In this document: in pieces, positions 4,381-49,434 of the stretch | How the letters are laid out: every line of letters begins with the position of its first letter | Numbering within the stretch: the stretch's first letter is position 1 | Assembly (NCBI GenBank): GCA_048938025.1 | Contig: JBHLMP010000023.1 | Location: forward strand, 1 to 56,179 | Length of the DNA: 56,179 nucleotides | Source: Promethearchaeota archaeon | Lineage (GTDB): Archaea > Asgardarchaeota > Lokiarchaeia > Sigyniarchaeales > SOKP01 | Direction of reading: 5' to 3' | The notes under the pieces: generated by a model | Seen by the model: only the letters and a program-made list of their open reading frames with translations | Told to the model about the DNA's origin: nothing | Database searches by the model: none | Program-made: the position numbers and the translations under genes

Positions 4381-4878
4381 TTAAAAATTAATTTTAAACT
4401 TAAATAATGAGTTCAAATTCATACTCTCTAATTTTTCTTTGTATTTTAAAAGTGCGGGATCTATTATCCCTTTAAAGGTATTTATATAATTCTTATATTT
4501 CATATAAAAATCTTCAACAATTTCTCGTAAAATACCTCTTTCTATTTGAAGATTGTTTTTTTTAGTAATAGCAATAACAATCAATCTCCCTCTTCTTTCA
4601 TATAATATTCGTGTCTCTCTAAAATTGATATCTTGAATTTCTTCATTATTATCTGCATTGATTTCTTTAATAAATAAATTGAGAGCAATTAAAAAATTAC
4701 TAATTAGATCTTCACTTAATAGACTTGATTTAACAGTATATCTTTTACTTAAAAGAAGAGAACCACTAAAACTATCAACAAAGTAAATAGCATGAAACCC
4801 ATAATCGTTATTGCTTATCTTTTCTAATGCAAACCCAAATTGCTTTTCATCATGATTTGCATTATCTCTTATATACAT
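4381..4878 (-). CDS. Longin-like domain protein (Asgard type)
   Basis: AIYFVDSFSGSLLLSKRY...SEDLISNFLIALNLFIKEI...IQDINF...ILYER...LIVIAIT pattern. Confidence 0.7.
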   Translation of the reverse strand: MYIRDNANHDEKQFGFALEKISNNDYGFHAIYFVDSFSGSLLLSKRYTVKSSLLSEDLISNFLIALNLFIKEINADNNEEIQDINFRETRILYERRGRLIVIAITKKNNLQIERGILREIVEDFYMKYKNYINTFKGIIDPALLKYKEKLESMNLNSLFKFKINF

Positions 4879-5127
4879 AATTTCTCCTTCAAACTTGACG
4901 TAAATTGTTATTTAGAATTTGATGTTAAATATTGAAAAATTGACTTAAATATAAAATACAAATGTTATCAATGTAATATCTAAATTATCTCCTTTTCATA
5001 TAGGTTTAATATTTGGTAGAATTGGATTATAACTTAGTCTTTTACTAAATGTTTATAACTAAAGGTTTATAAATAGAAACATATATATATTTTTACTAAA
5101 TAATTACTTTTAATTACTCCAAAATTT

Positions 5128-5595
5128 TTGATTATTATGGTAGCAGAAAAATTAGAGGAGAAAAATAAAATCTCTGTAGGTATGATTATTACTAATGAAG
5201 AATTAAATAATAACCGTATTTTTCCTTCAGAAATTAAAGAAGAGATTTTAAGATCGCCCTATTATTTGCTAATTTTTATTTCACGAGAAGATGTTGTTAA
5301 AATTAGCTGTTTTCCTACAAAAAAGAACAATATTAAAAAAATACTTATTAAATTGAAAGAATTTTCACCAGATCTCGTGAAAGGGATCTCCAATGTGTTA
5401 AATGAACTTAATTTAAGTAAAGACATATTACACACGACCGGTTTATGTTACGAAATGGAAAAATGTTTTTATGAGACTTATTTAACTAGCGATATAATAG
5501 ATTCAGGACAATTAAATGTTGAAACACTTAAAAATAAATTCATGTCTGTAGCAAATGTAATAAATGTTTTCATAGAAGATATACCCTTTTTGTAG
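5128..5595 (+). CDS. Hypothetical protein, possible C-terminal ACT-like domain
   Basis: 155-aa ORF; IKLKEFSPDLVKGISNVL...ILHTTG resembles the ACT beta-alpha-beta pattern. Start probably ATG 5137. Confidence 0.55.
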   Translation: MIIMVAEKLEEKNKISVGMIITNEELNNNRIFPSEIKEEILRSPYYLLIFISREDVVKISCFPTKKNNIKKILIKLKEFSPDLVKGISNVLNELNLSKDILHTTGLCYEMEKCFYETYLTSDIIDSGQLNVETLKNKFMSVANVINVFIEDIPFL

Positions 5596-5710
5596 AGTTT
5601 AATTAACGTATATCAGATTGTCTGCTGAGAAAATATGGTTAATGTTTAACATATGACCATAATAATGATATTGGAATTGTTAAAAGGAAAAATATAGTAT
5701 TGTGGAAATT

Positions 5711-5923
5711 ATGAATGATAAAAAAATACCACCACCTCCAGTATTACCCCCAAGTATTGAAATCAAAAATATGGATAATTTTTGCCTCTTCCATAAAGGT
5801 CAAATAAAAGGAGAGATCTATACTTGTCCTAAATGCAAAACAAAATATTGTTTAAAATGTGCTAAAGAAGCTAGAAATGAAGGGAACTATTGTGTAAAAT
5901 GTAGACAGTTAATTTTAATTTAA
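5711..5923 (+). CDS. Small RING-like zinc-finger protein with a polyproline N-terminus
   Basis: Eight ligands CLFH-x9-CPKC-x4-CLKC-x10-CVKC, preceded by IPPPPVLPPS. Confidence 0.75.
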   Translation: MNDKKIPPPPVLPPSIEIKNMDNFCLFHKGQIKGEIYTCPKCKTKYCLKCAKEARNEGNYCVKCRQLILI

Positions 5924-5943
5924 TTTTTAATATTTCTTTTTTT

Positions 5944-6336
5944 TTAATTTGTCTTCTTTATTGAAGAAAGTGAGCGCCAAGCTTTCCAAAAAATTAACCA
6001 TAATATTATAAAAATTAATAGTGCTGTTACAACAGTATAACCTCCAATAAAAAGATCAATTAAAATCAAAAAGGGTATACCTGCTCCTGAGAACCCAAAC
6101 ATATATCCATAACCCCAATATCTATTCTTTATTGCAATTAATACTCCTGGTATTATTGATGTGAATATTATTGATAAATAAGACCAGATTTCCATTGAAT
6201 CTAAAATAACTAACATATTTATCCAAGATACAGCAAATCCTATAATGATAAATACTACAGTCCCGATATCAAATTTGAACTCTGGCTCAGATCTTCCAAC
6301 TGTTTGCTTCTTTTTCATGTTTTCCATAATAATCAA
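5944..6336 (-). CDS. Small membrane protein (about 4 TM)
   Basis: Four hydrophobic segments in 130 aa. Confidence 0.75.
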   Translation of the reverse strand: MIIMENMKKKQTVGRSEPEFKFDIGTVVFIIIGFAVSWINMLVILDSMEIWSYLSIIFTSIIPGVLIAIKNRYWGYGYMFGFSGAGIPFLILIDLFIGGYTVVTALLIFIILWLIFWKAWRSLSSIKKTN

Positions 6337-6617
6337 CGAAGGTTTATTCCATTAATTCAAAAAGAAATTACAATAGATACGAGAACTTCTAAAAATTTAG
6401 TTTTTCTAATTTTTTACTTGATTTAAAATATCTCTTATTTCTTTTTAATTTTAAGAAAATTTAAAATTAATGATTTAAATAAGTAGATTTTATTATTTGA
6501 TTATAGAATTAATTTATAAACTCTAAAACATATAGTAAGTATAAGATAAAAATTTAATTTCCAAATATCATATTAAAACCAAAAATAAGATAGGAAAAAA
6601 AATTCATTAAAAACCCA

Positions 6618-6738
6618 TGACTCCTGCCTACACCCTGGATTTTTGTCTTTTGGTAGTGTAAGTCTTTACACTCTGATTTCGCCCTCCTCCCCCTATTTTA
6701 TTTTTGACCTTGTATTTAGGTCTTGTTGGCAGGAGTCA
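6618..6738. ncRNA. Candidate structured RNA or cis-element (121 nt)
   Basis: GC-rich island in an AT-rich spacer. Terminal arms 6618-6632 and 6724-6738 pair 14/15; internal hairpins GTGTAA/TTACAC and GACCT/AGGTC. Confidence 0.45.
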
Positions 6739-6945
6739 CCTTTTAAATCTAAAGGACAATGTTTAATTAAGGTGAAAATTGAAACATCTAAATAACATTT
6801 TAATAAAATTTCAGCTATTTTTTAATAATATTGATAATAATATCGAGATTATTAAAATACTTAAATAGCTTGAAGGGTTATTTTGTTAAAACAACCATTT
6901 ATTAAAATACTATTCTAAATAAATTACAAATATGTATTGATTCTT

Positions 6946-8676
6946 ATGACTGAAGGATTAACTCAAGAAGTTCAAAGAAAAGAAGAAATTATTCGAACAA
7001 CAACCAGCTTATGTCCAGAATGTTTACAACAAATTCCCGCCGAGATTTATGTTGATTCAGAAACAGATTGGGTGATGATGAGAAAAACATGCGAAGATCA
7101 TGGAGATTTCAAAGATAAGCTTTCAATTCATCCAGAAGATTATAAATGGCAAATGTCATTTACAGATGATATTGGTTCTACTGTAGATAACTCTACAAAA
7201 CCAGAATATACATCATCTGGGATTAAAGAAATAAAAAAGGGTTGTCCTTATGATTGTGGACTATGTGATAATCACCAAAGTGCTCCAAATATCTGTCTTA
7301 TCGATATAACTAATCGCTGCAATTTAACTTGCCCTATTTGTTTCGCCAATGCAAGTGCTAAAGGATATGTAGTAGAACCTACGTTTAATCAAGTAGTTCA
7401 AATCATGGAACACTTTAGATCCATGAAACCTGTCCCTGCTGTCATGCTCCAAATATCTGGTGGAGAACCAACAATAAGAGATGACCTACCTGATATCATT
7501 CGTAAAGGAGGAGAATTAGGATTTACTGAAATCATGGTTACTACAAATGGAGTAAGATTTGCAAAATCTATTGATTTTCTTCAACAATGTAAGGATGCTG
7601 GAATGAATGCTATATATCTCCAATTTGATGCAACCGACGATCCAGAGGCTTGGAAAAAAATTAGAGGCGTTAATTTATGGCCACTGAAGAAAAGAGTTAT
7701 TGAAAATTGTCGAAAAATTGGATTTTTTGGTGTTATGCTAGTTCCTGTAATTGCCAAAGGTGTTAACGATCATCAAATTGGTAACATTATGAATTATGCT
7801 AAAAACAATACTGATGTTATATCAGGAGTAATATTTCAACCAGTTGCTTTATGTGGTCGTATTAGTTTTGAAGAATTAATGGATATAAGATACACAACCT
7901 CTGATTTAAAAGATGCTATAAATGAATGTACAAATAACGCAATAGGTAAATTCTACCCAATCGCAACCACGGCTAAAATGACGAGACTATTAGCGTGGTT
8001 CGATAACCAGCCTGAATTTGGTATGACGAGCCATCATGACTGTGGTTTTTGTACCATTTGCATTGTAAATGAGAAAGACGAATGGGACCAAATCGAAAAA
8101 TATTTCGATACAGAAGGATTAATTAAATGGTCTAATAAAGTCTATGATATGGTTCAAGGTAAAGAAATTCCTAAACCTACTGGTTTCTTGAAGGGTATTA
8201 ACTTAGAGGATTTCGGAGCAATTGCAAGTACTATAGGTAAATTCGTTGATGAAATAACAGATCTCGGGTACAGGCAAATGATGAAAGCCTATTTCTTTGC
8301 AGGGGCATTAAAATTTATAAAAAACCCTGAAAAAATTCTAACAAGTAAAACTCTTCAAGGATTCATCCGTCTAGTTGCGTCTCCTAACTACAATTCAGCA
8401 GCAAACTTTCTACACACCCGTAATCTCATGATAAGTGCCATGCACTTCCAAGACGCATATAATTTCGATTTGGAGCGAGTAAGGCGATGTTTGGTTCATT
8501 ACGGCGTAATAGATCCAGACAATTCAGGTAAGGTTTTAGAGGTTCCATTTTGTGCCATGAACACATTACATCGGGAGCGTATAGAGCTAGCCCTTGCCAT
8601 ACAAGGCGAACAGGCTAAGAAGCCTGAAGTAATCCAAGCGGAAATCGAGGAACTTCTGGAGACCGTTAAGGACTAA
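6946..8676 (+). CDS. tes: Radical SAM tetraether lipid synthase (Tes/GDGT-MAS, MJ0619 family)
   Basis: N-terminal SLCPEC...CEDHG, GCPYDCGLCDNH, radical SAM CNLTCPIC, SGGEPT, C-terminal YNFDLERVRRC...PFCAMN. Confidence 0.85.
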   Translation: MTEGLTQEVQRKEEIIRTTTSLCPECLQQIPAEIYVDSETDWVMMRKTCEDHGDFKDKLSIHPEDYKWQMSFTDDIGSTVDNSTKPEYTSSGIKEIKKGCPYDCGLCDNHQSAPNICLIDITNRCNLTCPICFANASAKGYVVEPTFNQVVQIMEHFRSMKPVPAVMLQISGGEPTIRDDLPDIIRKGGELGFTEIMVTTNGVRFAKSIDFLQQCKDAGMNAIYLQFDATDDPEAWKKIRGVNLWPLKKRVIENCRKIGFFGVMLVPVIAKGVNDHQIGNIMNYAKNNTDVISGVIFQPVALCGRISFEELMDIRYTTSDLKDAINECTNNAIGKFYPIATTAKMTRLLAWFDNQPEFGMTSHHDCGFCTICIVNEKDEWDQIEKYFDTEGLIKWSNKVYDMVQGKEIPKPTGFLKGINLEDFGAIASTIGKFVDEITDLGYRQMMKAYFFAGALKFIKNPEKILTSKTLQGFIRLVASPNYNSAANFLHTRNLMISAMHFQDAYNFDLERVRRCLVHYGVIDPDNSGKVLEVPFCAMNTLHRERIELALAIQGEQAKKPEVIQAEIEELLETVKD

Positions 8677-8887
8677 TTATCTTTATTTTATATTTTTAAT
8701 TTCGATTTTTTCATACTTTTTTATTCCTAAAAATTATATTATCTTAATTTAGAAATACAAAAAAAGGTAGATCACTTAAGATTTTTTTAGTCTATAGTTA
8801 CTTGATATTAAGACTCTAGAAAGGGAACAGCTAATTCAGTAATAAATCATCATAGTAAATAGTAGTATCTTCGATTGGTATAATTAA

Positions 8888-8915
8888 ACGCATACAATTT
8901 CGATCTGGAACGTGT
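8888..8915 (+). repeat. Diverged copy of tes 8453-8480 (AYNFDLERV); possible integration scar
   Basis: 24/28 nt identical; all four differences synonymous (TAT/TAC, TTG/CTG, GAG/GAA, CGA/CGT). Confidence 0.75.
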
Positions 8916-9019
8916 TCATTCGATATCTAAAAATTGTATGCTAACTTAGGTTTAAAAGGAAATTTTATTAACTATTGATGGTATTCACGGAACTATTATT
9001 ATGTAGGTGTTGCAAAAAA

Positions 9020-9832
9020 TCAATAAAAGAAGATTAAATCCACTGAAATGATAGCTACAGCAGCCCCAAATGCGATAATAATGGCAGACCAATCAACTTT
9101 TGATATTTCAGTATGTGATATTCGATCTAAGACCGGAAAAGCTGGTTTGTAAAGTGCCATTAGTAAGATATTAAATCCTATGGCTGAAAAAAGCGGAATC
9201 GATTTATCCTCTAATAGATTTGGAGCAAATATGGATACATAAAATACAACAAAAATAAAGTATAATATAGATCCACTCGATATGAAAACTCGTTTCCAGT
9301 ATGAGTCACGCAAAGAAACATTGACTAATGGCATTAGAAGGAGCATAATGGTACTCCCGATAATTATAAAGACAGCCGCAATAATACCCATTATAATAGG
9401 TGATACTCCTCCGATCTCCATCACTTTTCCCCAATCAGATAACATGGGGAGATCCCCAATATCGATTAAAATTCCTACGCCTTCTACTATAAAATTCGTT
9501 CCTGCTAACATCAGTAATGGCAGAAGCTTAGGATTACGTTTACGCCATAATACAAGCGTAATGATAGAAGAACAAAAGAGATTAAATAGTGGTCCCATGG
9601 CTCCTGTAAAAGGGAAGAATTTTATAGGAACATAGCTGCAGGAAACATGTGATTCGGTAAAAGGATTAACATGTATTTCAATGTCAGAAATACCTCCTAC
9701 TATTAAGTATGCAAGAGCATGGCCAGTTTCATGAATTGTAAGTCCTAAGCAATAACTAAAGGTATATGCTCCTAGCATTAACAACATCGATTTTAAAGCA
9801 GAGAACTCATACACTTTTGAAGGTTCATTCAT
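9020..9832 (-). CDS. Membrane zinc metalloprotease-like protein (peptidase M50/M50B-like)
   Basis: HETGH within a TM segment, GAMGPLFN, SDW; multiple TM helices. Confidence 0.7.
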   Translation of the reverse strand: MNEPSKVYEFSALKSMLLMLGAYTFSYCLGLTIHETGHALAYLIVGGISDIEIHVNPFTESHVSCSYVPIKFFPFTGAMGPLFNLFCSSIITLVLWRKRNPKLLPLLMLAGTNFIVEGVGILIDIGDLPMLSDWGKVMEIGGVSPIIMGIIAAVFIIIGSTIMLLLMPLVNVSLRDSYWKRVFISSGSILYFIFVVFYVSIFAPNLLEDKSIPLFSAIGFNILLMALYKPAFPVLDRISHTEISKVDWSAIIIAFGAAVAIISVDLIFFY

Positions 9833-10140
9833 ACTTTTTCAATCATTGGTTTTGTAGTAGTATAACTAATTGAAAAATGATAGTTTTAAAATATAAATAA
9901 TTAGGAGCCCATTTTTCTTTTTCAATAGTAAAAACTAATTATCGATTTCATGAAATTCATATAAAACCTGATTTTTTCTGCTTTTACCTACTTAAGATTT
10001 ATCAAAACTTTTAATTAGTATTATTGTTGAAATCTCAAATAATCTTAATTAATCTCAAATAATCTCATTCTTATGGTTCTCCAATTATTCCTTAAAAAAA
10101 TAAAATTTTATATATGTATTTATAGTTATAAGAGGTTTAT

Positions 10141-11510: not shown

Positions 11511-12077
11511 ATGACAACTGAAGAAGTTAAAGAAAGTTTCATAAAAGAATACGTATTTAAGATTGTTTTACTTGGAGATGCTGCTGTGGGGAAAACAAGC
11601 CTTATTACGCAATATTGTGAAGGTTTCTTTGAAGAAGATTACAAACCGACGTTAGGTGCTAATATAATTCGTAAAGACGTGAATTTAGAAAATGTGAACA
11701 CGAAAGTTAGATTAATAGTGTGGGATTTAGCTGGACAAGAAAAATACAGTGTGATAAGGAGTATGTATTTTCAAGGATGTGTTGGTGCATTTTTAGTTTA
11801 TGATATTACGCGATATCATACATTTGATAGCATTAATTCAAAATGGTTAAAAGATTTCAAAAGATATGTAAAAAAAGAAGGGGCTTATATTTTAATTGGT
11901 AATAAGAGTGATTTAAAAGATCAGAGGGTTGTACCCAATGAAAAAGGCAAACAATTATCAGATGAAATTAAAGCAAGTAATTTTATTGAGACAAGTGCAA
12001 AGCTTGGAGAAAATATTGAAGAAGCATTCTCACTTTTAGTATATCAAATTTTGAAGAATCATGGCATAAATGTCTAA
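11511..12077 (+). CDS. Rab-like small GTPase
   Basis: GDAAVGKT, PTLG, WDLAGQE, NKSD, ETSAK. Confidence 0.95.
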   Translation: MTTEEVKESFIKEYVFKIVLLGDAAVGKTSLITQYCEGFFEEDYKPTLGANIIRKDVNLENVNTKVRLIVWDLAGQEKYSVIRSMYFQGCVGAFLVYDITRYHTFDSINSKWLKDFKRYVKKEGAYILIGNKSDLKDQRVVPNEKGKQLSDEIKASNFIETSAKLGENIEEAFSLLVYQILKNHGINV

Positions 12078-20111: not shown

Positions 20112-20639
20112 TTATTGTTTTGAAATTTTCTTTAAGATTTTTGTAGTTAATTCGATAAATGATTTTTCAACATTTTTCCCTGTTTTAGCGGATGTTATAA
20201 TTATATCCATGTTATTTTTTTTTGCAAATTCATTAGCGGCTTTATCAGTAATTTTAATTTTATCTTTTAAATCTGATTTATTCCCAATTAAAATGATAGG
20301 TTCATTTTCTCTATCTTTTTTAAAGCTTTGTATCCATTCGTCAAGTTTTTCATATGATTCTTTATTTGTCATATCATATAATAACAATGCTCCATTAGCT
20401 CCCTCTAAATATAATCTTCTGAGAGATTTAAAAGACTCTTGACCTCCTAAATCCCAAATTTGAGCAGATACCTCACCATATCCTGCTATATTCATATCTT
20501 TCTTTAGAAGATTAACTCCTAAGGTTGATTTGTAATTTTCTCTAAATTTATTTTCGATCCACCTGTAAAGCAACGAAGTTTTACCTACATTAGCCTCTCC
20601 AAGAAGAACTATTTTTATTATATATGTTGGTTCGCTCAT
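20112..20639 (-). CDS. Rab-like small GTPase
   Basis: GEANVGKT, STLG, WDLGGQE, NKSD, TSAK. Confidence 0.95.
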   Translation of the reverse strand: MSEPTYIIKIVLLGEANVGKTSLLYRWIENKFRENYKSTLGVNLLKKDMNIAGYGEVSAQIWDLGGQESFKSLRRLYLEGANGALLLYDMTNKESYEKLDEWIQSFKKDRENEPIILIGNKSDLKDKIKITDKAANEFAKKNNMDIIITSAKTGKNVEKSFIELTTKILKKISKQ

Positions 20640-21617: not shown

Positions 21618-22186
21618 TTAGTCTTCTTTATATCTATAATATAAATCTTTAATTATTGCTTGAAATGCTTTATATACTCCAGTTCCTGTTTTAGCGCTTG
21701 TTCTATAATATCCAAGAAAATTTCTTTCTTTTACAATTTCGTTAGCTTTCTCATCATCTAAATCCTCTTTATTGATTAAATCAATTTTGTTTCCGAATAA
21801 GACTATTGGGAGATCACCGCAATACTTTATAATATCATTATGCCATTGAGGGATATGTTCAAAACTCTCATCATCAGTATGGGAATATACTATAATTGCT
21901 GCTTTGCTTCCTTTATAGAAGGTAGGACGCATGAAATTGAATTCATCCTGACCAGCAATATCCCAGAAAAATAATTTACAATTATCTCCTTCAATCTCCT
22001 CATCATATTTTGAAAATTGCGCCCCCAAGGTCTTAATGTAGTCCCTTTGAAAACTGCCTTGAGTGTATTTTTTGATTAATGAGGTTTTTCCTACTGCTCC
22101 GTCGCCAATAAGTCCACTCTACTGAACTTTTTCAGTAGATCTGTGATTTTGAAGACGAAGCCTTTTTTATCTTCATTATTTCTCAT
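21618..22186 (-). CDS. Rab-like small GTPase split by a 29-nt intron-like insertion (exon 1 22186-22141, exon 2 22111-21618; 179 aa joined)
   Basis: Joined frame MRNNEDKKGFVFKITVIGDGAVGKTSLIKKYTQGSFQRDYIKTLGAQF...WDIAGQD...NKID...TSAK. The ORF track shows only the P-loop-less part. Confidence 0.9.
22112..22140 (-). other. Bulge-helix-bulge type mRNA intron (29 nt)
   Basis: mRNA UCAC-AG^A-UCUACUGAA-AAAG-UUCAGUAGA-GUGG-AC^U: 4-bp helix UCAC/GUGG, two 3-nt bulges, 9-bp intron stem, exon-exon stem GCUUCGUC/GACGGAGC. Canonical cuts restore the frame. Confidence 0.85.
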
Positions 22187-31459: not shown

Positions 31460-31990
31460 ATGTACGACGCAACATACAAAGTAGTAATATTCGGTGATGC
31501 GGGAACAGGGAAAACTACCTTAACCCAAAGGTTCCTAACAAATTTGTTTAAATCAGATTCTAAGATGACAATAGGAGTGGATTTTGAAGTAAAAAGTTTG
31601 GAAATTAATGAAAAGAAAGTAAAACTTCAGATCTGGGATTTTGGAGGTGAAGAGAGGTTTAGATTCTTGTTGCCAACATATGTTAGGGGCGCAAATGGCG
31701 CTCTCTTCATGTACGATATCACAAATTACTCGAGTTTGGCTCACATAGATGATTGGTTATTAGTTGTTAAAAAAGAAATTAGATCGGAAGATCAATTTCC
31801 TGTTATTGTAGTTGGCGGGAAAGCAGATTTAATTGATGATCGTGAAATCTCTGGAGAGGAAGGAATTAATATTTCAAAATCAAGAGGAGTAGACGGTTTT
31901 ATTGAGTGTAGTTCTAAAACAGGAGAAAATGTTGAAGAAACATTTGAAGCACTAACAAGATTAATGATGCAAAAATCTAATCTGCTTTAG
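31460..31990 (+). CDS. Rab-like small GTPase
   Basis: GDAGTGKT, TIGVDF, WDFGGEERF, GKAD, CSSK. Confidence 0.95.
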   Translation: MYDATYKVVIFGDAGTGKTTLTQRFLTNLFKSDSKMTIGVDFEVKSLEINEKKVKLQIWDFGGEERFRFLLPTYVRGANGALFMYDITNYSSLAHIDDWLLVVKKEIRSEDQFPVIVVGGKADLIDDREISGEEGINISKSRGVDGFIECSSKTGENVEETFEALTRLMMQKSNLL

Positions 31991-40502: not shown

Positions 40503-41045
40503 TTACCCTCCTACTCTTTTTAATGCAATTATTGGTCTTACTTTTAAAACTTTCCTATAAACAACAATTAAGGCAAGTAATTGAACAAATATGAACATTC
40601 CACTAGTAACAATGACTGGGACTAATCCTATTAAAATTGTAATATCTAAATTGATTTCTGCTGAATTTAAATAAGCGACAATAGCAGCATAATGAAATAG
40701 AACTTCAATTACAATAAAAAATCCCATCAATGTAGTAAATAATATAATTCCTGATACTAATATAATTATATTTTTATTTGTATAACCAATACATTTGAAT
40801 GTAGCCCAAACTCTTCTTCTTCTAGACACCAAAATCCAAGCATAGAGTAGAGAAAGAATTAAACTAGTAATAAAAAAGATCAATATAAAAAATAGAGCAG
40901 ATTCTCCTAATTCACCCCCAATTCCCAATTCTATGAATAAACTGGATAAAAATATTAAAATAGTATATATCAATGCAAAAACTGTGAATATCTTTTTTTC
41001 ACGCAATGAGAGAAGTATTGCCTTTTTCCACATTCTGAAAGCCAA
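40503..41045 (-). CDS. Minimal FtsX/MacB-like ABC permease
   Basis: RRRVWATFKCIGY and VRPIIALK motifs, 4 TM; adjacent to the ATPase. Confidence 0.75.
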   Translation of the reverse strand: MAFRMWKKAILLSLREKKIFTVFALIYTILIFLSSLFIELGIGGELGESALFFILIFFITSLILSLLYAWILVSRRRRVWATFKCIGYTNKNIIILVSGIILFTTLMGFFIVIEVLFHYAAIVAYLNSAEINLDITILIGLVPVIVTSGMFIFVQLLALIVVYRKVLKVRPIIALKRVGG

Positions 41046-41149
41046 TCAATTTCACCGTCATTAATTTAATTTTATTTTTAAACGTATTTTTAAATTTATA
41101 ATTTATTTATTAAATAATAATTTGATAATATAATATTTTGGTAATAATG

Positions 41150-41551
41150 ATGTCTGAAATAGAAATAATTATTGATGAGTTATTAAATGAAGAACAAAAT
41201 ATCTTTGGGATTGCAATTTTAAATAAAGATGGTATTTTGCTTACTCAAACTGAAAACTGGGATATTTCTAATGATCTTGCTCAAATTAATGAGTTGCTTA
41301 ATACTAAACTAGAGCTTGGTCAGAAAGGAATAACAAGTATTACTATTCAGGCTATAAAATATATGATCGTAGAAAACACAGAAGAAAGAAAAATAGGAAC
41401 GAATATAACAGGACAAGGACATATTATTATTTGTCCTATTCCAATCGGGGGAACAGGAGCATTAATTTGCTATATAAATCCAAAAGTGGGACCTCGAGAT
41501 ACCTTATTTGTTGCGCAAGAGTATGCCCAAAAACTTACCAATTTTGTTTAA
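41150..41551 (+). CDS. Profilin (Lokiarchaeia type)
   Basis: GIAILNKDG...TQTENW...IKYMIVENTEERKIGTNITGQGH...GPRD closely matches Loki profilin as I recall it. Start ATG 41147 or 41150. Confidence 0.9.
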   Translation: MSEIEIIIDELLNEEQNIFGIAILNKDGILLTQTENWDISNDLAQINELLNTKLELGQKGITSITIQAIKYMIVENTEERKIGTNITGQGHIIICPIPIGGTGALICYINPKVGPRDTLFVAQEYAQKLTNFV

Positions 41552-41726
41552 TTTCTTAATTTTTTCTTATTATAATGAATTCCAGAATTTAGTTATTAAA
41601 TTTCTTTATGAATTTTTTGTTTTTTATATTTCTAATTCCTTAGAATTATTTGAAAAATCTATATATTCAAAGGATAGTTATTATACAGTCCAACAGACTA
41701 CATTAAAACTCGAAGGTTTAATTTAG

Positions 41727-41766
41727 AAATTCTATGACTTTCTTAATTAAAATTCTATGACTTTCT
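41727..41766 (+). repeat. 17-bp direct repeat pair (AAATTCTATGACTTTCT)
   Basis: Exact copies at 41727-41743 and 41750-41766. Confidence 0.8.
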
Positions 41767-41986
41767 GAAAAAAGTTCTAAAAACAGTATTTTTCTCTTAA
41801 ATGATTTATAATCTTTTTGATAATTTTATTATTAAAAGGTAATTTTATCTTTTTTTTAGTAAATAGAATTTCAATAGATCTTCATCCAAAAAAAATAAAA
41901 ACAGAAATAACTGTTTATTAATCATTATCTAAAATATATTTAGAAAACCAAGGGTAGAAATATAACATACTCAATATATTCGAATA

Positions 41987-44900
41987 ATGATAGAGGAAAC
42001 AGAAGTATCTCTCTTAGAAAGAGCACAGGTTGAGGAAAAAAATTATAATTGGGTGGAAGTAGTAAGATTATACGATACTCTTGTTAAATCTTATTTAGAC
42101 AACGAATCGGCTATTAAATTAGCGGAGGTATATAAAAAACTTGGTTACGCTTACTTTAGAGCAGCAGAGAATTCAGAAATCTCAGAAGAATTTCTAGAAA
42201 GATATAAAAATTGTATTAAAGCTTATGAAGAAGCTGCCGATATTTATAAACAAACCGAAATCAAAGCTGAAGAATTGGATTGCATGGCGAATGCTTTCTT
42301 CTACAAAGGATTTATAGAAAGTTCTCTAAAGGATGCAAAAAATTCTTGCTACAAAGCTTATGAACTTTTCTTTGAGTCAAGCGAGATTTATTCTAAGGAA
42401 AATAACCAAGAAAGTTTTGTGAGAGCCTTAAGTAGAGCTGCATTGGCTTTAAGTCTAACTACAGCTCTTACCAACAACCATAATGAAATTCAGCAATTTA
42501 TTAAAAAAGGAAGAAAAATTGCAAAGAAAGCTTGGAGACTTTCAAAAACAGTTGGCAGTATTCCATCCATTGCCGAATCATTGTGGGCTGACAATTTATT
42601 TGCATGTTGTGAAACTTTTACGACAGATTTTAAATTGAATGAAAACTGGGAGGTGTATATCAAGGAATTACTTTACAGGGTTGACGAAAGTTTAAAATTT
42701 GCCGAAAATTGTGATGACTATAGATTCCGTGGATTAATTTACGCTCTAGTCGGTGATTGTTATGGTTTATATGGAGTTCAGTTTGTTGAGGATGAAATAA
42801 TACAAAGGAAGACCATTAATAAGGGATTAAAATTACTCGAAAAGGGCTTACAATTTGCTAAAAAAGCAAAAGATAAACAAATTATACTTTGGTCATTGTT
42901 TTGGTTGGATTGGTGGGCATGGCTTGGAGGAAGGTATGATTACATTCAAAAGAGAATAGTCACTGATCTTAATGAATTTATAAAAATAGGAGAAATATAT
43001 GGAAACTCATATAATATTTTAATTCGGTATGCGTTTGTATGGCCTGCCCTCTATTATAGCAATTTTGCGCAGAGAAGTTTTTTCACTCCAGCTCAGAGAA
43101 AAATCCATGCTAAACAAGGGATAAAATATGCCAAAGAATCTATGAAGATTTTTCCAATCTCATTTTGGGCTCCAATGTCATATCAGGTAATGACTTGGTC
43201 ATACTCGCAATTAACGATTCTGACTAAAAAAAAGGATGAGCAAGGTAAATATGCACAGAAAATGCTGCATTACGCAAAGCAAGCTGAAATAATTTCTAAA
43301 AAATACAATGGAGGAGGTTCTCGAGCTGCTGGCTATTCATCTTTATACAAAGCTTACAAAACACTTGCTGAAATTAATGAAAATAAAGAAGAAAAAATTA
43401 AAATGCTATCAGCTGCCGTAGATGCATCTAAAATGAGCATCGGACACGCTATAGAATCCCGAACGGGCACAATAGCAGCTTTTTTGCGGTTAGCACTCCT
43501 CTATGAAGAACTTAGTCTCGTAAGCGGAGAATTAGATTCGTTAATGGAAGCTAAAGAGATTTTACTAAATGTTAATAAGGAAAGCATTGATAGAAGATAC
43601 AATTCATTCACAGCCGCTTCACACGAATATATTGCACGCATAGAAGATCGACTGGGCAATCACACGGCTTCTGCGGAACACTATAAAAGAGCTCAAAAAG
43701 CTTACGGAAAGTCACTCGAAACCATTGAATACAAACCCTTGAAAAAACGGGTTAATGAAAAAATTGAATATGCCCATGCTTGGAATCTAATCGAAAAGGC
43801 AAAATCATACAATAAAAGAGAAAGTCACTTAGAAGCTAAAGAATGCTACGAAAAAGCGTGTGGAATTCTAAAAAGAATACCAAGATACAATTACGAAGCA
43901 CTCTACTTTTCTGCATGGATATCACAAGAGGAAGCAGAGCATCTCAGTAAACAAGAAAAATATAATGAAGCCATTGAGGGTTTTGAAAAAACTAAAAAAA
44001 TCTTTTATAACGCTATAAAGACGCTAGAAAAATCCTTCATGCAATCTAAAGATAAAATTGAAAAAGAAAGAATCAAGAAACTCGAGAATATAGCCAAAAT
44101 AAGGATGAATTATTGCTCAGCCAGAATAAACCTTGAAAAAGCAAAGATCTTAGGAAAAAAAGGAGAACATATTGATGCTGCAGAAAAATTTTCCTCAGCA
44201 GCTTCTCAAATTAGAGATATTTGCACTTTATTTATAATTAAACGAGAACGAGAGGAACTTAAAGCAGTTTATTATCTCTGTAAAGCCTGGGAGAATATGG
44301 AATTCGCTGAAAATTATTTAGAACCAGAAAGATATGCAGAAGCAGCAGATCTTTTCTCAAAAGCAAGCCAAACCTTTCCTGATAATAAAATGAAATTGCT
44401 AGCGTCTGGAAATTGTGCTTTCTGTAATGCTTTAAAACTAGGATGTAAATTTGATGAGTCTTATGACTCAGAAACTAAAGTAAAATTGTATCCAAACATT
44501 AAAGCAATGTTAAGAGGAGCTGCAACTTCTTATGAGAAGGGAGGTTTTAAAAATGGTGCAAATTGGGCTATAGCTACTTCTACTTATTTTGATGGTGTAT
44601 GGCATATAATTAAAGCAGATGAAGAGATGGAATTAAAAGAGAAAGAAAGACTTTTTAAATTAGGAGAGCAAATTCTAAAATCAACAGCAGATCTTTTCGG
44701 TAAAGCAGGTTACGAAGATAAACAAAATGAAGTATTGAATCGTATTAGATTGATTGAAAAGGAAGAAAAGATTTTGTTTTCTGCTTTAAATTCAATTAAA
44801 AGACCTGAGATTTCTGGAAGTACAACTGGTATAATTGCTCCGGCTTGTCCTATAGAAATCAGTCAATCTCCTAGATTAAGTGAAGTACGCCAAATCACAG

Positions 44901-45817
44901 ATAATATATTAAGAAGATTTGTAGAAGAGAAAACTGAAAGGAAAAAATATGAAATAATATACACAGATTTTCTTAAGCAGGACTTAAAAATCCAAAAAAG
45001 TCAATTTAGAATAGGTATTGCTCAAATTGGTTTATCAAAAACTGGTGAAATTATAACAGAATTTTTTGAAGAGAAATCTTCTGGTCTGTTGGGATTTAAA
45101 AAAGATAAACTAAAAACTATGATAAGTAAAGTTAAAAAAATGGTTGATAATGCTGGTAAACATAAAATTAATGTTCTACTTTTTCCAGAAATGACTATAG
45201 ATTTAAACTATATAGAATTTTTGGAAGAGATATCAAATCTCGCAAAGAAATATAATATGTATATCATTCCAGGTTCCTATCACGACCAAGAAACAAAACA
45301 AAATATAAGTATGGTTATCTCTCCTGAAAGAGTTCTATGGAAACAAGAAAAACATATTCCAGCTATAATTCACTTTAAAGATAAAAAAATTAAAGAAGCT
45401 ATAGAAACCACCTCAAGACCTCGAAAAATACTAGTCTGTAATACTGAATACGGAAGAATTGTTATCGCTATATGTCGAGACTTTTTAGATATGGATTTAA
45501 GAGTAGAATTAAAGAATTTCGAACCTGCTGTAGATATAATTTTAAATCCGGCATTTACTCCTGTAACCGCTGACTTTAAAGCAGCTCATTTTGATGCACG
45601 TAGATCTATATATGCTTACTGCTTCTTCGCCAATGTCGCTGAATTTGGTGATTCGCTAATCTATACCCCCGAGAAAGATCGTACTGAAAGAAACGTTCCA
45701 GTAAAAGAAGAAAGCTTGATATATAAAGATATTGACATCTTTAAATTACGTTCAGAGCGCAAAAAATGGGAAAAAGAGCAAAATAGAGAAAGATTGTTTA
45801 TTCAAAGCACAAGATAG
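41987..45817 (+). CDS. Large TPR-like repeat protein with a C-terminal nitrilase/carbon-nitrogen hydrolase domain
   Basis: About 930 aa of Ala/Tyr-rich helical repeats, then RIGIAQI, LLFPEM (Glu), IIPGS, QEKHIP (Lys), IAICRD (Cys). Confidence 0.85.
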   Translation: MIEETEVSLLERAQVEEKNYNWVEVVRLYDTLVKSYLDNESAIKLAEVYKKLGYAYFRAAENSEISEEFLERYKNCIKAYEEAADIYKQTEIKAEELDCMANAFFYKGFIESSLKDAKNSCYKAYELFFESSEIYSKENNQESFVRALSRAALALSLTTALTNNHNEIQQFIKKGRKIAKKAWRLSKTVGSIPSIAESLWADNLFACCETFTTDFKLNENWEVYIKELLYRVDESLKFAENCDDYRFRGLIYALVGDCYGLYGVQFVEDEIIQRKTINKGLKLLEKGLQFAKKAKDKQIILWSLFWLDWWAWLGGRYDYIQKRIVTDLNEFIKIGEIYGNSYNILIRYAFVWPALYYSNFAQRSFFTPAQRKIHAKQGIKYAKESMKIFPISFWAPMSYQVMTWSYSQLTILTKKKDEQGKYAQKMLHYAKQAEIISKKYNGGGSRAAGYSSLYKAYKTLAEINENKEEKIKMLSAAVDASKMSIGHAIESRTGTIAAFLRLALLYEELSLVSGELDSLMEAKEILLNVNKESIDRRYNSFTAASHEYIARIEDRLGNHTASAEHYKRAQKAYGKSLETIEYKPLKKRVNEKIEYAHAWNLIEKAKSYNKRESHLEAKECYEKACGILKRIPRYNYEALYFSAWISQEEAEHLSKQEKYNEAIEGFEKTKKIFYNAIKTLEKSFMQSKDKIEKERIKKLENIAKIRMNYCSARINLEKAKILGKKGEHIDAAEKFSSAASQIRDICTLFIIKREREELKAVYYLCKAWENMEFAENYLEPERYAEAADLFSKASQTFPDNKMKLLASGNCAFCNALKLGCKFDESYDSETKVKLYPNIKAMLRGAATSYEKGGFKNGANWAIATSTYFDGVWHIIKADEEMELKEKERLFKLGEQILKSTADLFGKAGYEDKQNEVLNRIRLIEKEEKILFSALNSIKRPEISGSTTGIIAPACPIEISQSPRLSEVRQITDNILRRFVEEKTERKKYEIIYTDFLKQDLKIQKSQFRIGIAQIGLSKTGEIITEFFEEKSSGLLGFKKDKLKTMISKVKKMVDNAGKHKINVLLFPEMTIDLNYIEFLEEISNLAKKYNMYIIPGSYHDQETKQNISMVISPERVLWKQEKHIPAIIHFKDKKIKEAIETTSRPRKILVCNTEYGRIVIAICRDFLDMDLRVELKNFEPAVDIILNPAFTPVTADFKAAHFDARRSIYAYCFFANVAEFGDSLIYTPEKDRTERNVPVKEESLIYKDIDIFKLRSERKKWEKEQNRERLFIQSTR

Positions 45818-45918
45818 GAGATTTCGATTTCCTAACTTAAAGAAATGTAAAAAAACAAAAGATGAATTAACTAATTATTAATTATTCCTATAAGTTAATA
45901 CGATATATTGAGGACGAT

Positions 45919-45996
45919 ATAAACCCCCAACCAGATCCAAGAGATACACTCTTTAATGTCCAAGAATAGCCTAAAAAACTAACAGATTTATTTTAA
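45919..45996 (+). pseudogene. Displaced, degenerate copy of the profilin 3' end
   Basis: INPQPDPRDTLFNVQE*PKKLTDLF* is colinear with profilin 41474-41551 INPKVGPRDTLFVAQEYAQKLTNFV* (14/25 aa identical, same stop position). Confidence 0.85.
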
Positions 45997-46013
45997 TTTA
46001 TTTTACATTTTTC

Positions 46014-47132
46014 TTATTGTATTGAAGTCCAGTAATTAGTTAATAAGTTTTTTAATGAATTTTTTATCTTAATTATGTCATCAATTTTACTCTTTTCTAA
46101 GAAATCAATGTTCTCAAAATTGGGTGGTTTATATTCTTCATTTAACAGTGCATTTATAACAGCATGGACACAGAAAGGTAATGCTATTAAATTATAGCCA
46201 CCTTCTAAAACAAATACTAATTTGCCCTGGCATATATCATCTGCTATTTTTAAAATTCTCTTAGTGAATTTGTAATAAGAATTAGATGTTAAATTACAGT
46301 TTCCTATTGGATCTGAGAAATGCATATCAAATCCAGCTGCAATAATTATTAGATCAGGGCAAAATTCATTTAATATAGGTTCAAGAATATCCATAAATTC
46401 TAAAAATATATCATCTGTACAGTACCTTGGTATTGGAAAGTTAATACTTTTGCCTAGACCATCACCCTCACCTAATTCATTTATAAACCCTATTTCTCCC
46501 TCTACAAAATCAAATTCATGAATAGAAAAATAAAGAACACTTGGGTCATCATAAAAATATTGTACTAATCCATCACCAAAATGACTATCTATATCAATAA
46601 TAGCAATTTTTTTTTTATAATTGATTTTTTCCCGTAAAAATATAATTGAATTTGCTATATTATTAAATATACAAAATCCAGAAGCTTTTTCTCTCAAAGC
46701 ATGGTGTCCTGGTGGTCTTATAAGAGCGAAAGATTGATTTATATCTTGATTTATTACACTCTCAATAGCTTGTATAGTACCACCAATTGCTTTTTTTGCG
46801 AGTAAAAATGTGTCTTCTGTGATATAGATTTCTTCACCAAGAAAGCCACTGCCTAAATTTGAGAGATTTTTAATAGAATCAATATGATATTTTGTATGAG
46901 CCAAGTTTATTATCGATTCATCAATTAGTTTAGGTTTCAATTTAATTATCATCTCATTTTCAAAAATTTTTCTATTTTCAAAATGAGTCAAAATAGATTT
47001 GATCCTAAGAGGAGTTTCGTAAGAAAGAAAGATTGGATGTGGATATGGGGGAATATTCTTCGAAGCAAAGTCGTCATCGACAACAATTCCAATTTTATTA
47101 TTCTTTAGCATATTAACATTAACAATATTCAA
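46014..47132 (-). CDS. Histone deacetylase family (Zn-dependent deacetylase)
   Basis: RPPGHHA, GFCIFNN, DIDSHFGDG, AGFD, EGGY. Confidence 0.93.
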   Translation of the reverse strand: MNIVNVNMLKNNKIGIVVDDDFASKNIPPYPHPIFLSYETPLRIKSILTHFENRKIFENEMIIKLKPKLIDESIINLAHTKYHIDSIKNLSNLGSGFLGEEIYITEDTFLLAKKAIGGTIQAIESVINQDINQSFALIRPPGHHALREKASGFCIFNNIANSIIFLREKINYKKKIAIIDIDSHFGDGLVQYFYDDPSVLYFSIHEFDFVEGEIGFINELGEGDGLGKSINFPIPRYCTDDIFLEFMDILEPILNEFCPDLIIIAAGFDMHFSDPIGNCNLTSNSYYKFTKRILKIADDICQGKLVFVLEGGYNLIALPFCVHAVINALLNEEYKPPNFENIDFLEKSKIDDIIKIKNSLKNLLTNYWTSIQ

Positions 47133-47211
47133 AAATAACTAAATTATTATATTAAAATTTGCATACTTTATTTTAAATACATTTTATTTAATAAAAAAAT
47201 ACATGTGAATA

Positions 47212-49434
47212 ATGATGAATGCTCCTGAAATTTTGTTTATTACATATATAAATGCAATTCCAATTTTAATTTTATTAATACCCTACTTCTTAATTCGAAA
47301 AAAAGCTATAAGAAACCTATATCTTAGAATTTATGTTGGAATTTTAGTTTTTTATTTGATATACTGGGTTCTTCCAATAATTTATCAAATAAAACTAGAT
47401 CCTGAAGAATTAGAAAGCCAAAATGATGTAGTTGGATTAGGATATATGTTTTCTCATTTAGGGTCGTTAATATCTTTATTTGCCTATTACCCCTTAGTTA
47501 CATTACCGTTCATTTTTTTTGTTGCTCCTTTTTTATCGATTTTTTATGTTTGGAATCGGTTAAGAAAAGAAGAAGGATCAATTAAATTCAACTTAACACT
47601 ATTAACTTACCAGTTAAGTGACAGTCCTTATAAACTTATTCGAGAAGAATTAATAAAAAATAATTGGGCTAGGGAGAAAGAGATACTAAAGTTAATGATT
47701 GTACTTTTGCCTATATCACTTTATCTCTTACAAGTGATTTTAACTGTGACAGGAAAAGAAAGTGATCCAGTGCTTACCGGCGAAACACCATTAGGGTGGT
47801 TTCTTGAAATTCTGTTTGTTTATCTCGCAATCTTCATCTTAAGCATAGAGTTAATTTATATCTCACAAATCACATTAAAAGGTCGATATATTGGAGAGGA
47901 TATGAGAAGAGATACATACAAAAGTCTTTATTCAGTAGGAGCACCGATATCGATTTTATCTATCTTATTATTTATTGTCCAATATACAGATTCAATTCCA
48001 GTAATGCTTTATTTCTTCGCATATTTTATAATGGCTTCAATAATTTTCGTTTTGTTCCTTAATATCTTTGAACCAATAGCTCTTCTCATCTTTATTAAAA
48101 TATTAGATTGGTGGAAACATAAAAAAGAAAAAATTAGAAAAACAAATTTTACAAACTTTTATTATGGAATAGTATTTAGTTTTTTGGCAGTATTCCTATT
48201 TCTACTTTTAAATATGATCGCATTTAATCCCATGTACCTTATTTCATTCGAAGATCCTGATTCTATTATTGATTCAGGAAAATTCATTCCTGATATTGTA
48301 GATCCAACTCTTAGAAACTCAATTCTATTTGATTCGATGGTAATTTTCAATTTTTTTGCTTTACAACTTGTACCTTTAATTATAATAATTATCTTTTTGG
48401 TTTATACCTTGAAATATTTAAAAAGTCTATTCTTAAGTTTCACTTCATTTTTACCAATAATAATCCTATTTTCCATACTATTTGGGCTTCTACAAGCACC
48501 AGCTTTGATTAACTTTGCTCCAGAAGAATACTGGATAACAGGTCAAACAAGTTTTTTTAACATATTTGGATTCAACTTTTATACTTTTAGAACAGCTGCT
48601 TTAGATGCTAATCTATCTGGTTTATTAGGTTTTTTGGCAATTCCTTATCTCTTTACAAGGTATGTGTTCAATATAATAATTTGGGGTTTGATAGTCTTTT
48701 ATCTTAAAAAGGATTTTAGAAGTATTAAGTTTCCAATTGATGAAAGCCGAATAGAAAGTACAATATTTGCCTCAGTTGGCGATTTTATCACTTATAAAGA
48801 TTATACTGAAGAAGAAATTCCATATCTAATTACGAAAAAACCAGATATAGTTTTGAAGGATATTGAACAAGAACGAGAAGAAATTAAGGATTTATTGAAT
48901 ATTTTGGAAAAGGACACATTATTAGAACAGCTTAAACCAGAAGATGAAAATGAAAAAAAGAGACTTTTCTTTACTCTTAAATATCTCTTTTTTAATAATT
49001 TTATAAGTATCTGGAAACCTGAATTTTCTTTTACATATGAAAGAGTAGAAAAACAAGGATTATATATCATTTATGATGATGGTCGGGGAATATTTAATTA
49101 TCCTTTTGTTAGAGAAACTGTCCAAGATCCAGGGCTAGTATCTGGTATGTTTTCAGCAATTACTTCATTCATTAAAGAAATGACTAAATCTACCGAAGTA
49201 TTAAAAAAAATTGACCATGGCGACATTACAATTCTTTTAGAATATGGTCAACGTATTTTTGGCGCTCTCTTTATAAAGGGAAATGAAAGTGCAGAAGTAA
49301 GAGGACATTTAAAAGATTTTGTCAAAACTTTTGAAGAAAAATATTCAGAAATACTCAAAGATTGGAGTGGTGCTCTCATTTACTTTAAAGACGATGCCAA
49401 ATTAGTAGAAGATATATTTAAAGAAGAAGAATAA
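47212..49434 (+). CDS. Polytopic membrane protein with a C-terminal longin-like domain
   Basis: About 10-11 TM, then GLYIIYDDGRGIF...QDPGLVSGMFSAITSFIKE...KIDHGDITILLEYG. Confidence 0.8.
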   Translation: MMNAPEILFITYINAIPILILLIPYFLIRKKAIRNLYLRIYVGILVFYLIYWVLPIIYQIKLDPEELESQNDVVGLGYMFSHLGSLISLFAYYPLVTLPFIFFVAPFLSIFYVWNRLRKEEGSIKFNLTLLTYQLSDSPYKLIREELIKNNWAREKEILKLMIVLLPISLYLLQVILTVTGKESDPVLTGETPLGWFLEILFVYLAIFILSIELIYISQITLKGRYIGEDMRRDTYKSLYSVGAPISILSILLFIVQYTDSIPVMLYFFAYFIMASIIFVLFLNIFEPIALLIFIKILDWWKHKKEKIRKTNFTNFYYGIVFSFLAVFLFLLLNMIAFNPMYLISFEDPDSIIDSGKFIPDIVDPTLRNSILFDSMVIFNFFALQLVPLIIIIIFLVYTLKYLKSLFLSFTSFLPIIILFSILFGLLQAPALINFAPEEYWITGQTSFFNIFGFNFYTFRTAALDANLSGLLGFLAIPYLFTRYVFNIIIWGLIVFYLKKDFRSIKFPIDESRIESTIFASVGDFITYKDYTEEEIPYLITKKPDIVLKDIEQEREEIKDLLNILEKDTLLEQLKPEDENEKKRLFFTLKYLFFNNFISIWKPEFSFTYERVEKQGLYIIYDDGRGIFNYPFVRETVQDPGLVSGMFSAITSFIKEMTKSTEVLKKIDHGDITILLEYGQRIFGALFIKGNESAEVRGHLKDFVKTFEEKYSEILKDWSGALIYFKDDAKLVEDIFKEEE

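Follow-up and report, generated by a model that had tools for sequence, protein, structure and literature searches.

A single-gene island at the profilin/HDAC junction has moved between deeply diverged Lokiarchaeia

Introduction

The junction between the convergent genes for profilin and a histone-deacetylase-family protein (HDAC) is among the most conserved neighbourhoods in Lokiarchaeia. In contig JBHLMP010000023.1 of a Promethearchaeota archaeon (assembly GCA_048938025.1), this junction is occupied by a gene for a large protein with a TPR-like region and a nitrilase-superfamily domain. How did this gene come to lie there, and what has its arrival done to the two neighbouring genes? An initial annotation of the same DNA proposed an accessory island that had used the 3' end of profilin as its attachment site and had apparently replaced the C-terminal helix of this actin regulator. 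We analysed the whole stretch of 56,179 nt (hereafter the window) together with 80 profilin loci with 10-kb flanks, which were the output of a profilin-alignment scan of species-representative genomes. These loci are referred to by L-numbers (L001, L002, L015 and so on), and the window is an additional, 81st row. Four of the genomes carry the island, namely the window, L001, L015 and L067.

Results

The TPR-nitrilase gene lies between two copies of the profilin/HDAC junction

The last 25 codons and the stop codon of profilin (41474-41551) have a colinear counterpart at 45919-45996, in the same frame, that matches 14 of 25 residues and contains one in-frame stop. The two copies bracket the TPR-nitrilase open reading frame (ORF) at 41987-45817, as had been annotated. 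We observed that the repeat extends beyond the previously described segment, as it does not end at the profilin stop codon but runs through the spacer into the tail of the HDAC gene. A blastn comparison aligned 41472-41671 with 45917-46118 at 141/204 identities (69%, E 2e-26). The local alignment score of the pair was 72, compared to 15.4 ± 2.5 (maximum 30) in 500 Markov-resimulated pairs (z ~23) and to a maximum of 30 among 390 other 400-nt pieces of the window. The repeated segment of ~206 bp comprises the profilin tail, a spacer of 15-17 nt and the last 36 HDAC codons, so that the site is the whole profilin/HDAC junction, of which the 3' end of profilin proposed earlier as the attachment site is one part. 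The features of the locus are as follows.

41150-41551, plus strand: profilin gene, 133 aa from the ATG at 41150; intact, with a native, clade-type C-terminus
41472-41677, plus strand: left repeat copy (attL-like), with the live profilin tail at 41474-41551, a 15-nt spacer at 41552-41566 and a dead HDAC tail at 41567-41674 (minus strand)
41684-41745, plus strand: possible second, older profilin-tail remnant directly inside the island (weak evidence)
41678-45916, plus strand: island proper, 4,239 bp, consisting of one gene with 309 bp upstream of it and 99 bp downstream
41987-45817, plus strand: cargo gene, TPR and nitrilase superfamily, 1276 aa; intact, under purifying selection
45917-46124, plus strand: right repeat copy (attR-like), with a dead profilin tail at 45919-45996, a 17-nt spacer at 45997-46013 and the live HDAC tail at 46014 to ~46121 (minus strand)
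46014-47132, minus strand: HDAC gene, 372 aa (PF00850, E 6.8e-76), convergent with profilin; intact, with a host-type tail

The layout of the two copies is reciprocal, with live profilin and dead HDAC tails on the left and dead profilin and live HDAC tails on the right. In the left copy, the HDAC tail contains two internal stops plus a doubled terminal stop, and HDAC residues 338-371 match it in tblastn with E 1e-7 and in-frame stops; in the right copy, profilin residues 109-131 match with E 3e-6. We also searched the four carriers with an nhmmer profile that was built on 59 junctions without an island. In the window, this profile found the left copy at 41439-41677 (model positions 2-240, E 2e-44) and the right copy at 45917-46235 (model positions 35-351, E 8.7e-64). 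The island is flanked by direct repeats derived from its target site, as integrative elements are. Because the spacer is only ~15 nt long, the 3' context of each gene lies inside the tail of the other, and duplication of the junction would keep the ends and terminator regions of both genes intact.

Relatives have an empty site and the island has moved between hosts

Among the 80 loci, the gene order g37583-ZnR-ABC-FtsX-profilin> <HDAC-MEM740 is kept almost everywhere. The profilin-HDAC gap was 7-51 bp, mostly 14-17 bp, in 58 of the loci, and three (L001, L015 and L067) carry the TPR-nitrilase island. The remaining loci have a spacer of 61-250 bp (four loci) or more than 250 bp (nine loci), have no HDAC gene downstream (four loci) or are cut by contig ends (two loci). 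One of the empty sites is in L002, a close relative with 93-98% amino acid identity to the window across the backbone. The proposed search for an empty site among relatives was thus successful, and the variable occupation of an empty target site is again a property of integrative elements. Two results that would have spoken against an accessory island, a second intact profilin or HDAC paralogue at this position and a stably syntenic TPR gene, were not obtained, as the former was present in 0/80 loci and the island in only 3/80.

The carriers are dispersed over the host phylogeny. In a FastTree tree of five backbone genes, from which profilin was left out (71 of 81 rows kept; 10 rows with fewer than three genes dropped), carriers occupy at least three positions that are forced by starred branches. 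The window groups with two relatives as (L001,(L002,window)), L067 is sister to the empty L009, and L015 lies among the empty L008, L014 and L022; L050, the row nearest to L015, ends inside profilin. In 50-nt bins from ~41800 to ~45918, the islands of the window and L015 were 90-100% identical, and their flanks were 50-86% identical. We observed low synonymous divergence (dS) in the island (window-L015 = 0.11; window-L067 = 0.21-0.26; window-L001 = 0.055, residues 556-1276) in comparison to four backbone genes (window-L015 = 1.3-2.1; window-L067 = 1.1-2.4; window-L001 = 0.09-0.25). As island dS is 0.05-0.26 and backbone dS is 1.1-2.4 for L015 and L067, the island has been transferred horizontally and recently between deeply diverged hosts, into one fixed site. 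The island retains 93-98% nucleotide identity between hosts, although their backbone genes are saturated at synonymous sites. The accessory character proposed in the initial annotation is borne out by this movement, together with the presence or absence of the island at a fixed site, its att-like direct repeats and its lack of an integrase.

The island body (~41700-45900) had no match elsewhere in the window. Against the 77 island-free loci it gave six weak, AT-rich matches (60-65% identity, E 5e-12 to 4e-5), and beyond those the dead tails alone matched, as expected, the ends of the profilin and HDAC genes of the hosts. A tblastn search with the cargo protein found no match in phage or plasmid collections, and we rejected a phage or plasmid origin of the cargo on this basis.

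The flanks of L067 are a patchwork: FtsX is 96-100% L009-like, the HDAC 3' end is 86-88% L011-like, and the rest, namely the remainder of HDAC and MEM740, is 90-97% L035-like. Over L067 8600-18100, the nearest relative shifts every few hundred to few thousand bases and also includes L018 (84-90%), a pattern which suggests that either Lokiarchaeal lineages recombine rampantly or the contig is chimeric. An island that is closer between hosts than its flanks are, mosaic flanks and the absence of mobility genes are together what is found in islands exchanged by recombination.

No recombinase was found in or near the island

We found no integrase or transposase domain in the 45 window ORFs of at least 100 aa. 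In L001, L015 and L067, 14 ORFs of at least 150 aa that lie within 10 kb of profilin do not belong to the backbone, and we found no recombinase domain in any of these. The backbone ORFs of these three loci are orthologues of window ORFs that were already domain-scanned. Within the island itself, the TPR-nitrilase gene is the sole ORF of at least 100 aa, which agrees with the annotated absence of an integrase from the interval. The element therefore differs from an integrative element that encodes its own recombinase. A transposon with a target-site duplication was rejected, as there is no transposase domain and no convincing pair of terminal inverted repeats; the sole inverted pair near both ends (41599-41625/45850-45876; 27 nt, 78%) is AT-rich, and there are 132 pairs of this kind in all. 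We also rejected a tRNA as the target, as the window contains no tRNA gene, and no Rfam family was found at E ≤ 1 in 41000-47300, which covers the island and its surroundings.

Outer repeat limits are shared by the carriers and inner edges travel with the island

On the junction profile, the start of the right copy falls at position 35-38 in three carriers (window, L015 and L067), and the end of the left copy falls at position 238-240, again in three (window, L015 and L001). The exceptions are L001, in which the dead profilin copy has been lost and the right copy begins at position 112, and L067, which has a deletion within the left copy. The duplicated segment runs from profilin codon 109 to HDAC codon -36. 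Because the repeat limits are identical in all carriers, they point to one founding event and not to a fresh target duplication at each insertion.

Identity between the left and right copies was 71% in the window, 85% in L001, 83% in L015 and 68% in L067. The inner repeat edges travel with the island and are 88-95% identical between hosts (the left inner edge of the window is 95% identical to that of L001 and 88% to that of L015), and the outer parts of the repeats resemble various host lineages. The dead profilin copies were 68-73% identical to each other, compared to 74-87% for their best host matches. In L067, the right copy and the adjoining HDAC end are L011-like (96% and 87%).

A second, older remnant of the profilin tail may lie directly inside the island, although the evidence is weak. 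Over model positions 69-131, the junction profile matched the corresponding stretch of L015 (E 0.015) and that of L001 (E 0.021); the match in the window was not significant (E 4.3). In L015, a tblastn of its own profilin tail against the left end of its island gave E 0.003, with the stop codon in register. We had considered 41672-41725 as an extra minus-strand HDAC remnant, and dropped this assignment in favour of the plus-strand profilin-tail remnant, which is a better, still weak, description.

Both live gene tails are of the host type

To assess if the island has replaced the profilin C-terminus, we compared the live and dead tails with 119 listed homologues. We observed that 110 homologues were closer to the live tail, seven were equally close to both and two were closer to the dead copy, which is the reverse of the initial impression that the dead copy is closer to Lokiarchaeal profilin. 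This impression had a real core, as the dead copy has the commoner family state at tail positions 4, 14, 19 and 23 (Q in 76, V in 55, K in 58 and D in 39 of 119 homologues) and the live tail has rarer states there. Two of these rarer states mark the clade of the window, however: K at position 4 is present in 15/15 of the closest homologues and 0/104 others, and Q at position 19 in 13/15 of the closest homologues, and L002, whose site is empty, has both as well. In the dead copy these residues are Q4 and K19, accompanied by P5, D6, a stop at position 17, P18 and F25, five states seen in 0/119 homologues. Because the clade marker K4 is missing, the dead copy is likely to be foreign or older than the clade. 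Judged by these residues, it appears to be an old or foreign scar on the island side, and not the displaced original tail that it had been taken for.

At nucleotide sites that separate the two copies of the window, L002 agreed with the left copy in the profilin tail (19:5) and the spacer (3:0). Within the HDAC tail, it was the right copy that L002 agreed with (10:1, then 27:4). As L002 sides with the left profilin tail and the right HDAC tail, both live tails are host-type. This agreement alone gives no proof that the dead copies are foreign, for which the missing K4 is the stronger argument. The spacer after the live tail is that of L002 over the first 22 nt, and the spacer after the dead copy differs. 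The switch between host-type and non-host sequence lies at the HDAC stop codon in the window and ~75 nt further right in L001, a difference that post-integration gene conversion could blur. From these data, a replacement of the profilin C-terminus by the island in the window genome is not supported.

The profilin tail does vary more than the rest of the protein. Between the window and L001 or L002, divergence was 14.7-16% in the tail and 6.2-6.5% in the body (p ~0.02-0.03), and between L001 and L002 we found 10/75 differences in the tail and 3/324 in the body (p 6e-6). Tails are also decoupled from bodies among the clade proteins; P0001 and P0002, for example, have no body differences and four tail differences. 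A similar excess was present in empty-site pairs (body vs tail: L049/L056 = 1/324 vs 7/75; L014/L022 = 2/324 vs 6/75). Across the three closest genome pairs, the last 25 codons have 6-10 differences and the other 108 codons have 1-3, with tail-excess p values of 4e-5 to 7.5e-4 in the two island-free pairs and 6e-6 in L001/L002. As empty-site pairs share the excess, tail hypervariability is not specific to carriers, and we no longer take the L001/L002 excess as specific evidence for a replacement driven by the element. Candidate causes of the excess are a hotspot of recombination, selection that acts on the C-terminal helix, and scars left by past visits of the island.

The HDAC gene of L001 offers one modest example of incoming DNA supplying a new gene tail. 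The dead HDAC tail copy of L001 is 100% identical to the live tail of L002 over 58 nt, and its live tail differs from that of L002 at 4/58 positions, compared to a background of 0-5 per 100 nt across HDAC.

The cargo is a nitrilase-superfamily protein with an exchangeable N-terminal region

The N-terminal ~1000 aa of the cargo protein are helical and TPR-like, and the C-terminus is a nitrilase-superfamily (CN hydrolase) domain. PF00795 matched residues 1042-1254 with E 1.1e-8 (35.1 bits against a cut-off of 23.2), and the motifs FPE, QEK and ICRDF, which contain the E, K and C that we take to be the Glu-Lys-Cys triad, are invariant in 43 family sequences. The top Foldseek matches of a predicted structure of moderate confidence (pLDDT 61) were all nitrilase-superfamily proteins (best 2w1v, E 1.5e-7), and a phmmer search of the C-terminal domain against PDB sequences returned nothing. 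Profile and structural model agree in predicting that the cargo belongs to the nitrilase superfamily. The PADLOC RTasNitrilase model also matched (E 1.4e-13), over profile positions 120-354 of 397, which is the nitrilase part only. As no reverse transcriptase domain was found in the cargo or its neighbours, we rejected assignment to a DRT-type (reverse transcriptase-nitrilase) defence system. NCBIfam gave no name for five proteins.

As dN/dS of the cargo between hosts is 0.16-0.34, the gene has been kept functional. Its family comprises 710 proteins at E ≤ 1e-3 among 7,997 scored candidates, is widespread in Lokiarchaeia, and has most members at ~1276 aa and 53-62% identity. One member is encoded on a 2,265,924-bp contig of the same size as the complete chromosome of the empty-site L009. 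The island carries one subclade of this family, whose usual place is elsewhere in the genome.

Window and L001 differ over one part of the cargo. From 42050 to 43650 (residues 22-555; L001 10930-12530) they are 56% identical in nucleotide sequence (dS 1.9), whereas on either side of this N-terminal stretch identity is 96-98%. The L001 version has at most 42% amino acid identity to any of 120 listed family members, and the nitrilase domain is 85-91% identical even to ordinary members. The N-terminal TPR-like region thus looks like a swapped cassette, a variable module on a conserved catalytic one.

Genes and other insertions around the locus

The window is an ordinary piece of Lokiarchaeal chromosome. 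Besides a gene for ArgRS, its 56 kb contain genes for TBP, CDC48, KTI12 and deoxyhypusine synthase and four for small GTPases of the Ras family (11511-12077, 20112-20639, 21618-22028 and 31460-31990), which together are typical Asgard content. The HDAC protein is 93% identical in amino acid sequence to those of L001 and L002. The profilin ORF as called starts at a TTG at 41138, with a further in-frame ATG at 41147; the true start is probably the ATG at 41150 or 41147, as homologues have 133-134 aa and begin MSEIE. Profilin had 828 homologues at E ≤ 1e-3, the best 120 of them 75-100% identical; the 119 listed homologues come from Lokiarchaeia-type MAGs, and their identity to the window profilin is 75-97%. 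Many of the listed homologues carry a precomputed PF00235 assignment and the name 'profilin family protein', by which the product of 41150-41551 belongs to PF00235; a Pfam scan of the window profilin itself gave nothing at E ≤ 0.01.

Other additions were observed at or near the junction. One clade, to which eight of the nine loci with a spacer above 250 bp belong (L016, L026, L033, L042, L043, L054, L069 and L076), has a conserved membrane-protein ORF of ~120 aa there, in a spacer of 470-600 bp; we had considered the ~500-600-bp spacers of these eight loci as island scars, and rejected this as they hold the lineage-specific ORF. One of them, L054 (DATKTW010000011.1), is titled Nanopelagicaceae bacterium and has a full Lokiarchaeal profilin neighbourhood, so that it is probably a mis-binned contig. 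L037 has a 3.1-kb insertion upstream of profilin (6755-10000) with a 708-aa ORF without a Pfam match, preceded by a duplicated remnant of the first 34 profilin codons (62% identity); it is a second insertion at profilin bounded by a duplicated gene end. In the sister genomes L013 (8617-9810) and L064 (2660-3859), FtsX and profilin are separated by a BNR-repeat gene (PF13088; ~398 aa), whose G+C content is 0.34-0.40, compared to 0.21-0.28 in the profilin-HDAC spacers of other examined loci. Relative to L002 and the window, L001 has an additional ~2.8-kb insertion (4785-7637) in the gap between g37583 and the zinc-ribbon gene, which encodes a 464-aa rhodanese-domain protein and a 162-aa membrane protein and no integrase.

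Discussion

We consider it reasonably probable that the element is an island of a single gene that moves horizontally, encodes no recombinase and enters the profilin/HDAC junction by recombination. The island would travel with, or be bounded by, a ~206-bp copy of the junction, and entry would take place by recombination between this island-side copy and the chromosomal junction. This could occur by a single crossover of a circular form (Campbell-type) or by a double crossover in the profilin and HDAC flanks with DNA from an island-bearing donor. By either route, the occupied site would end up with a direct repeat: one tail of each host gene would stay complete and functional, along with its 3' context, and the second copy of that tail would remain as a dead sequence on the side of the island. 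Such a route predicts outer limits that are fixed, inner edges specific to the island, host-like middles whose switch points differ, and flanks that form a patchwork. From these features we infer both the route and the use of host recombination instead of a dedicated enzyme.

Several points weigh against this explanation. Neither an excised circle nor a donor molecule was observed. The repeat copies are only 68-85% identical, and the junctions of distant hosts ~70-85%, both of which are low for efficient homologous recombination. A recombinase acting in trans is possible, gene conversion between the copies after integration could mimic variable crossover points, and chimeric assembly of strain mixtures in metagenome-assembled genomes (MAGs) could account for part of the patchwork in the flanks. 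Host-type live tails would also be expected from simple decay of the dead copies, and the event that first created the 206-bp duplication is left unexplained.

A possible but distinctly less probable alternative is a site-specific integrative element or mobilisable island that recognises a fixed core in the junction, with its integrase supplied in trans or lost. Gene 3' ends are typical targets of such elements, and the sharing of one site and of the outer repeat limits by four genomes of distant lineages would follow readily. In the accessible text of PMC11529989, Asgard integrated elements have integrases and short att motifs. However, we found no recombinase in the island or the rest of the 56-kb window, nor within 10 kb of profilin in any other carrier, and as all four islands have the same single-gene content, any decay would have to predate their spread. 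The apparent switch point also differs between the window and L001, and no core identical in every copy stands out in the alignment. We regard as improbable the model of the initial annotation, in which the element integrated at profilin codon 109, supplied the 25 live codons and displaced the original tail, which then decayed. The repeat does begin exactly at codon 109, the tail is more diverged than the body both between the window and L001/L002 and between L001 and L002, and tails and bodies are decoupled in P0001/P0002. Yet the live tail bears the K4/Q19 signature of its clade, shared with the empty-site L002, and is followed by an L002-like spacer that is not found after the dead copy; the dead copy is without K4, and the tail excess recurs in the empty-site pairs L049/L056 and L014/L022.

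There is very little to favour the remaining view, which is that the locus is ancient, either as a vertically inherited gene and duplication with many losses or as a decayed profilin-HDAC tandem around a captured gene. The repeat copies look old (68-71% in the window and L067), and the possible second remnant inside the island would fit an old structure. Against this, island dS is at least 10-fold below backbone dS between hosts, a contrast by which we rejected a purely vertical inheritance followed by losses. We likewise rejected a profilin-HDAC tandem that had decayed, as no gene-body remnants were found beyond the 206 bp and no second intact profilin or HDAC in the 80 loci. The 58 gaps of 7-51 bp and the lack of a scar in the 59 aligned island-free junctions also argue against an ancient feature.

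How does the island compare to known systems? Some islands and integrative elements insert at the 3' end of a tRNA or protein gene, and their attP contains a copy of this end. SGI1-type islands at trmE (PMC8409611) are an example. Like these, the profilin island has a fixed site, direct repeats derived from the target 3' end, empty sites, horizontal spread and an intact target gene. In contrast to them, it has no integrase in cis in any of its four copies, its repeat of ~206 bp spans two convergent tails and a spacer, the crossover position seems variable, and the live tails of the window are the host's own and not element-supplied.

Flexible genomic islands are exchanged by homologous recombination in conserved flanks, and Campbell-type integration is the pop-in/pop-out single crossover of a circle. 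The profilin island resembles these in its lack of mobility genes, its presence/absence polymorphism among close relatives, its mosaic flanks and a similarity between lineages that far exceeds that of the flanks; direct repeats of the homology segment are expected after a single crossover. It is unlike them in that its hosts have backbone dS above 1 (55-83% amino acid identity), the homology segment is only ~206 bp at ~70-85%, and the cargo is a single gene. Of the two kinds, then, the island lacks the integrase of the 3'-end-targeting kind and has the properties of the recombination-exchanged flexible kind.

With the Asgard integrated elements described in the accessible parts of PMC8813620 and PMC11529989, the island shares Asgard hosts, a defined site and a repeat at both ends. 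It differs from those of PMC11529989 in that the latter, as far as the accessible text goes, have tyrosine integrases and an 11-bp att motif. The words 'nitrilase' and 'direct repeat' are not found in the accessible text of either paper, and 'profilin' is absent from that of PMC11529989 and occurs in that of PMC8813620 only within a list of eukaryotic signature proteins. Our literature search found no work joining nitrilase, tetratricopeptide and Asgard, and none on an island at profilin.

A more speculative and rather unlikely idea is that the TPR-nitrilase gene is a self-targeting 'homing cassette' that uses its 206-bp mimic of the junction as a homology arm, without an integrase. It would pop in and out across genus- or family-level distances, possibly swapping the profilin C-terminal helix or the HDAC tail at each visit. 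If true, this would account for the fast divergence of the last 25 profilin codons even at sites that are now empty.

The locus corrects an attractive but unsupported idea, as profilin, an actin regulator, was not recoded by the island in the window genome. The duplicated two-gene junction that serves as the attachment site may provide a simple marker with which metagenomic populations could be followed for integration, excision and recombination. Little is known of the mechanisms by which genes flow in Asgard archaea, and the island is a concrete example of such flow, both recent and datable, among deeply diverged Lokiarchaeia at one defined locus, with no recognisable mobility enzyme.

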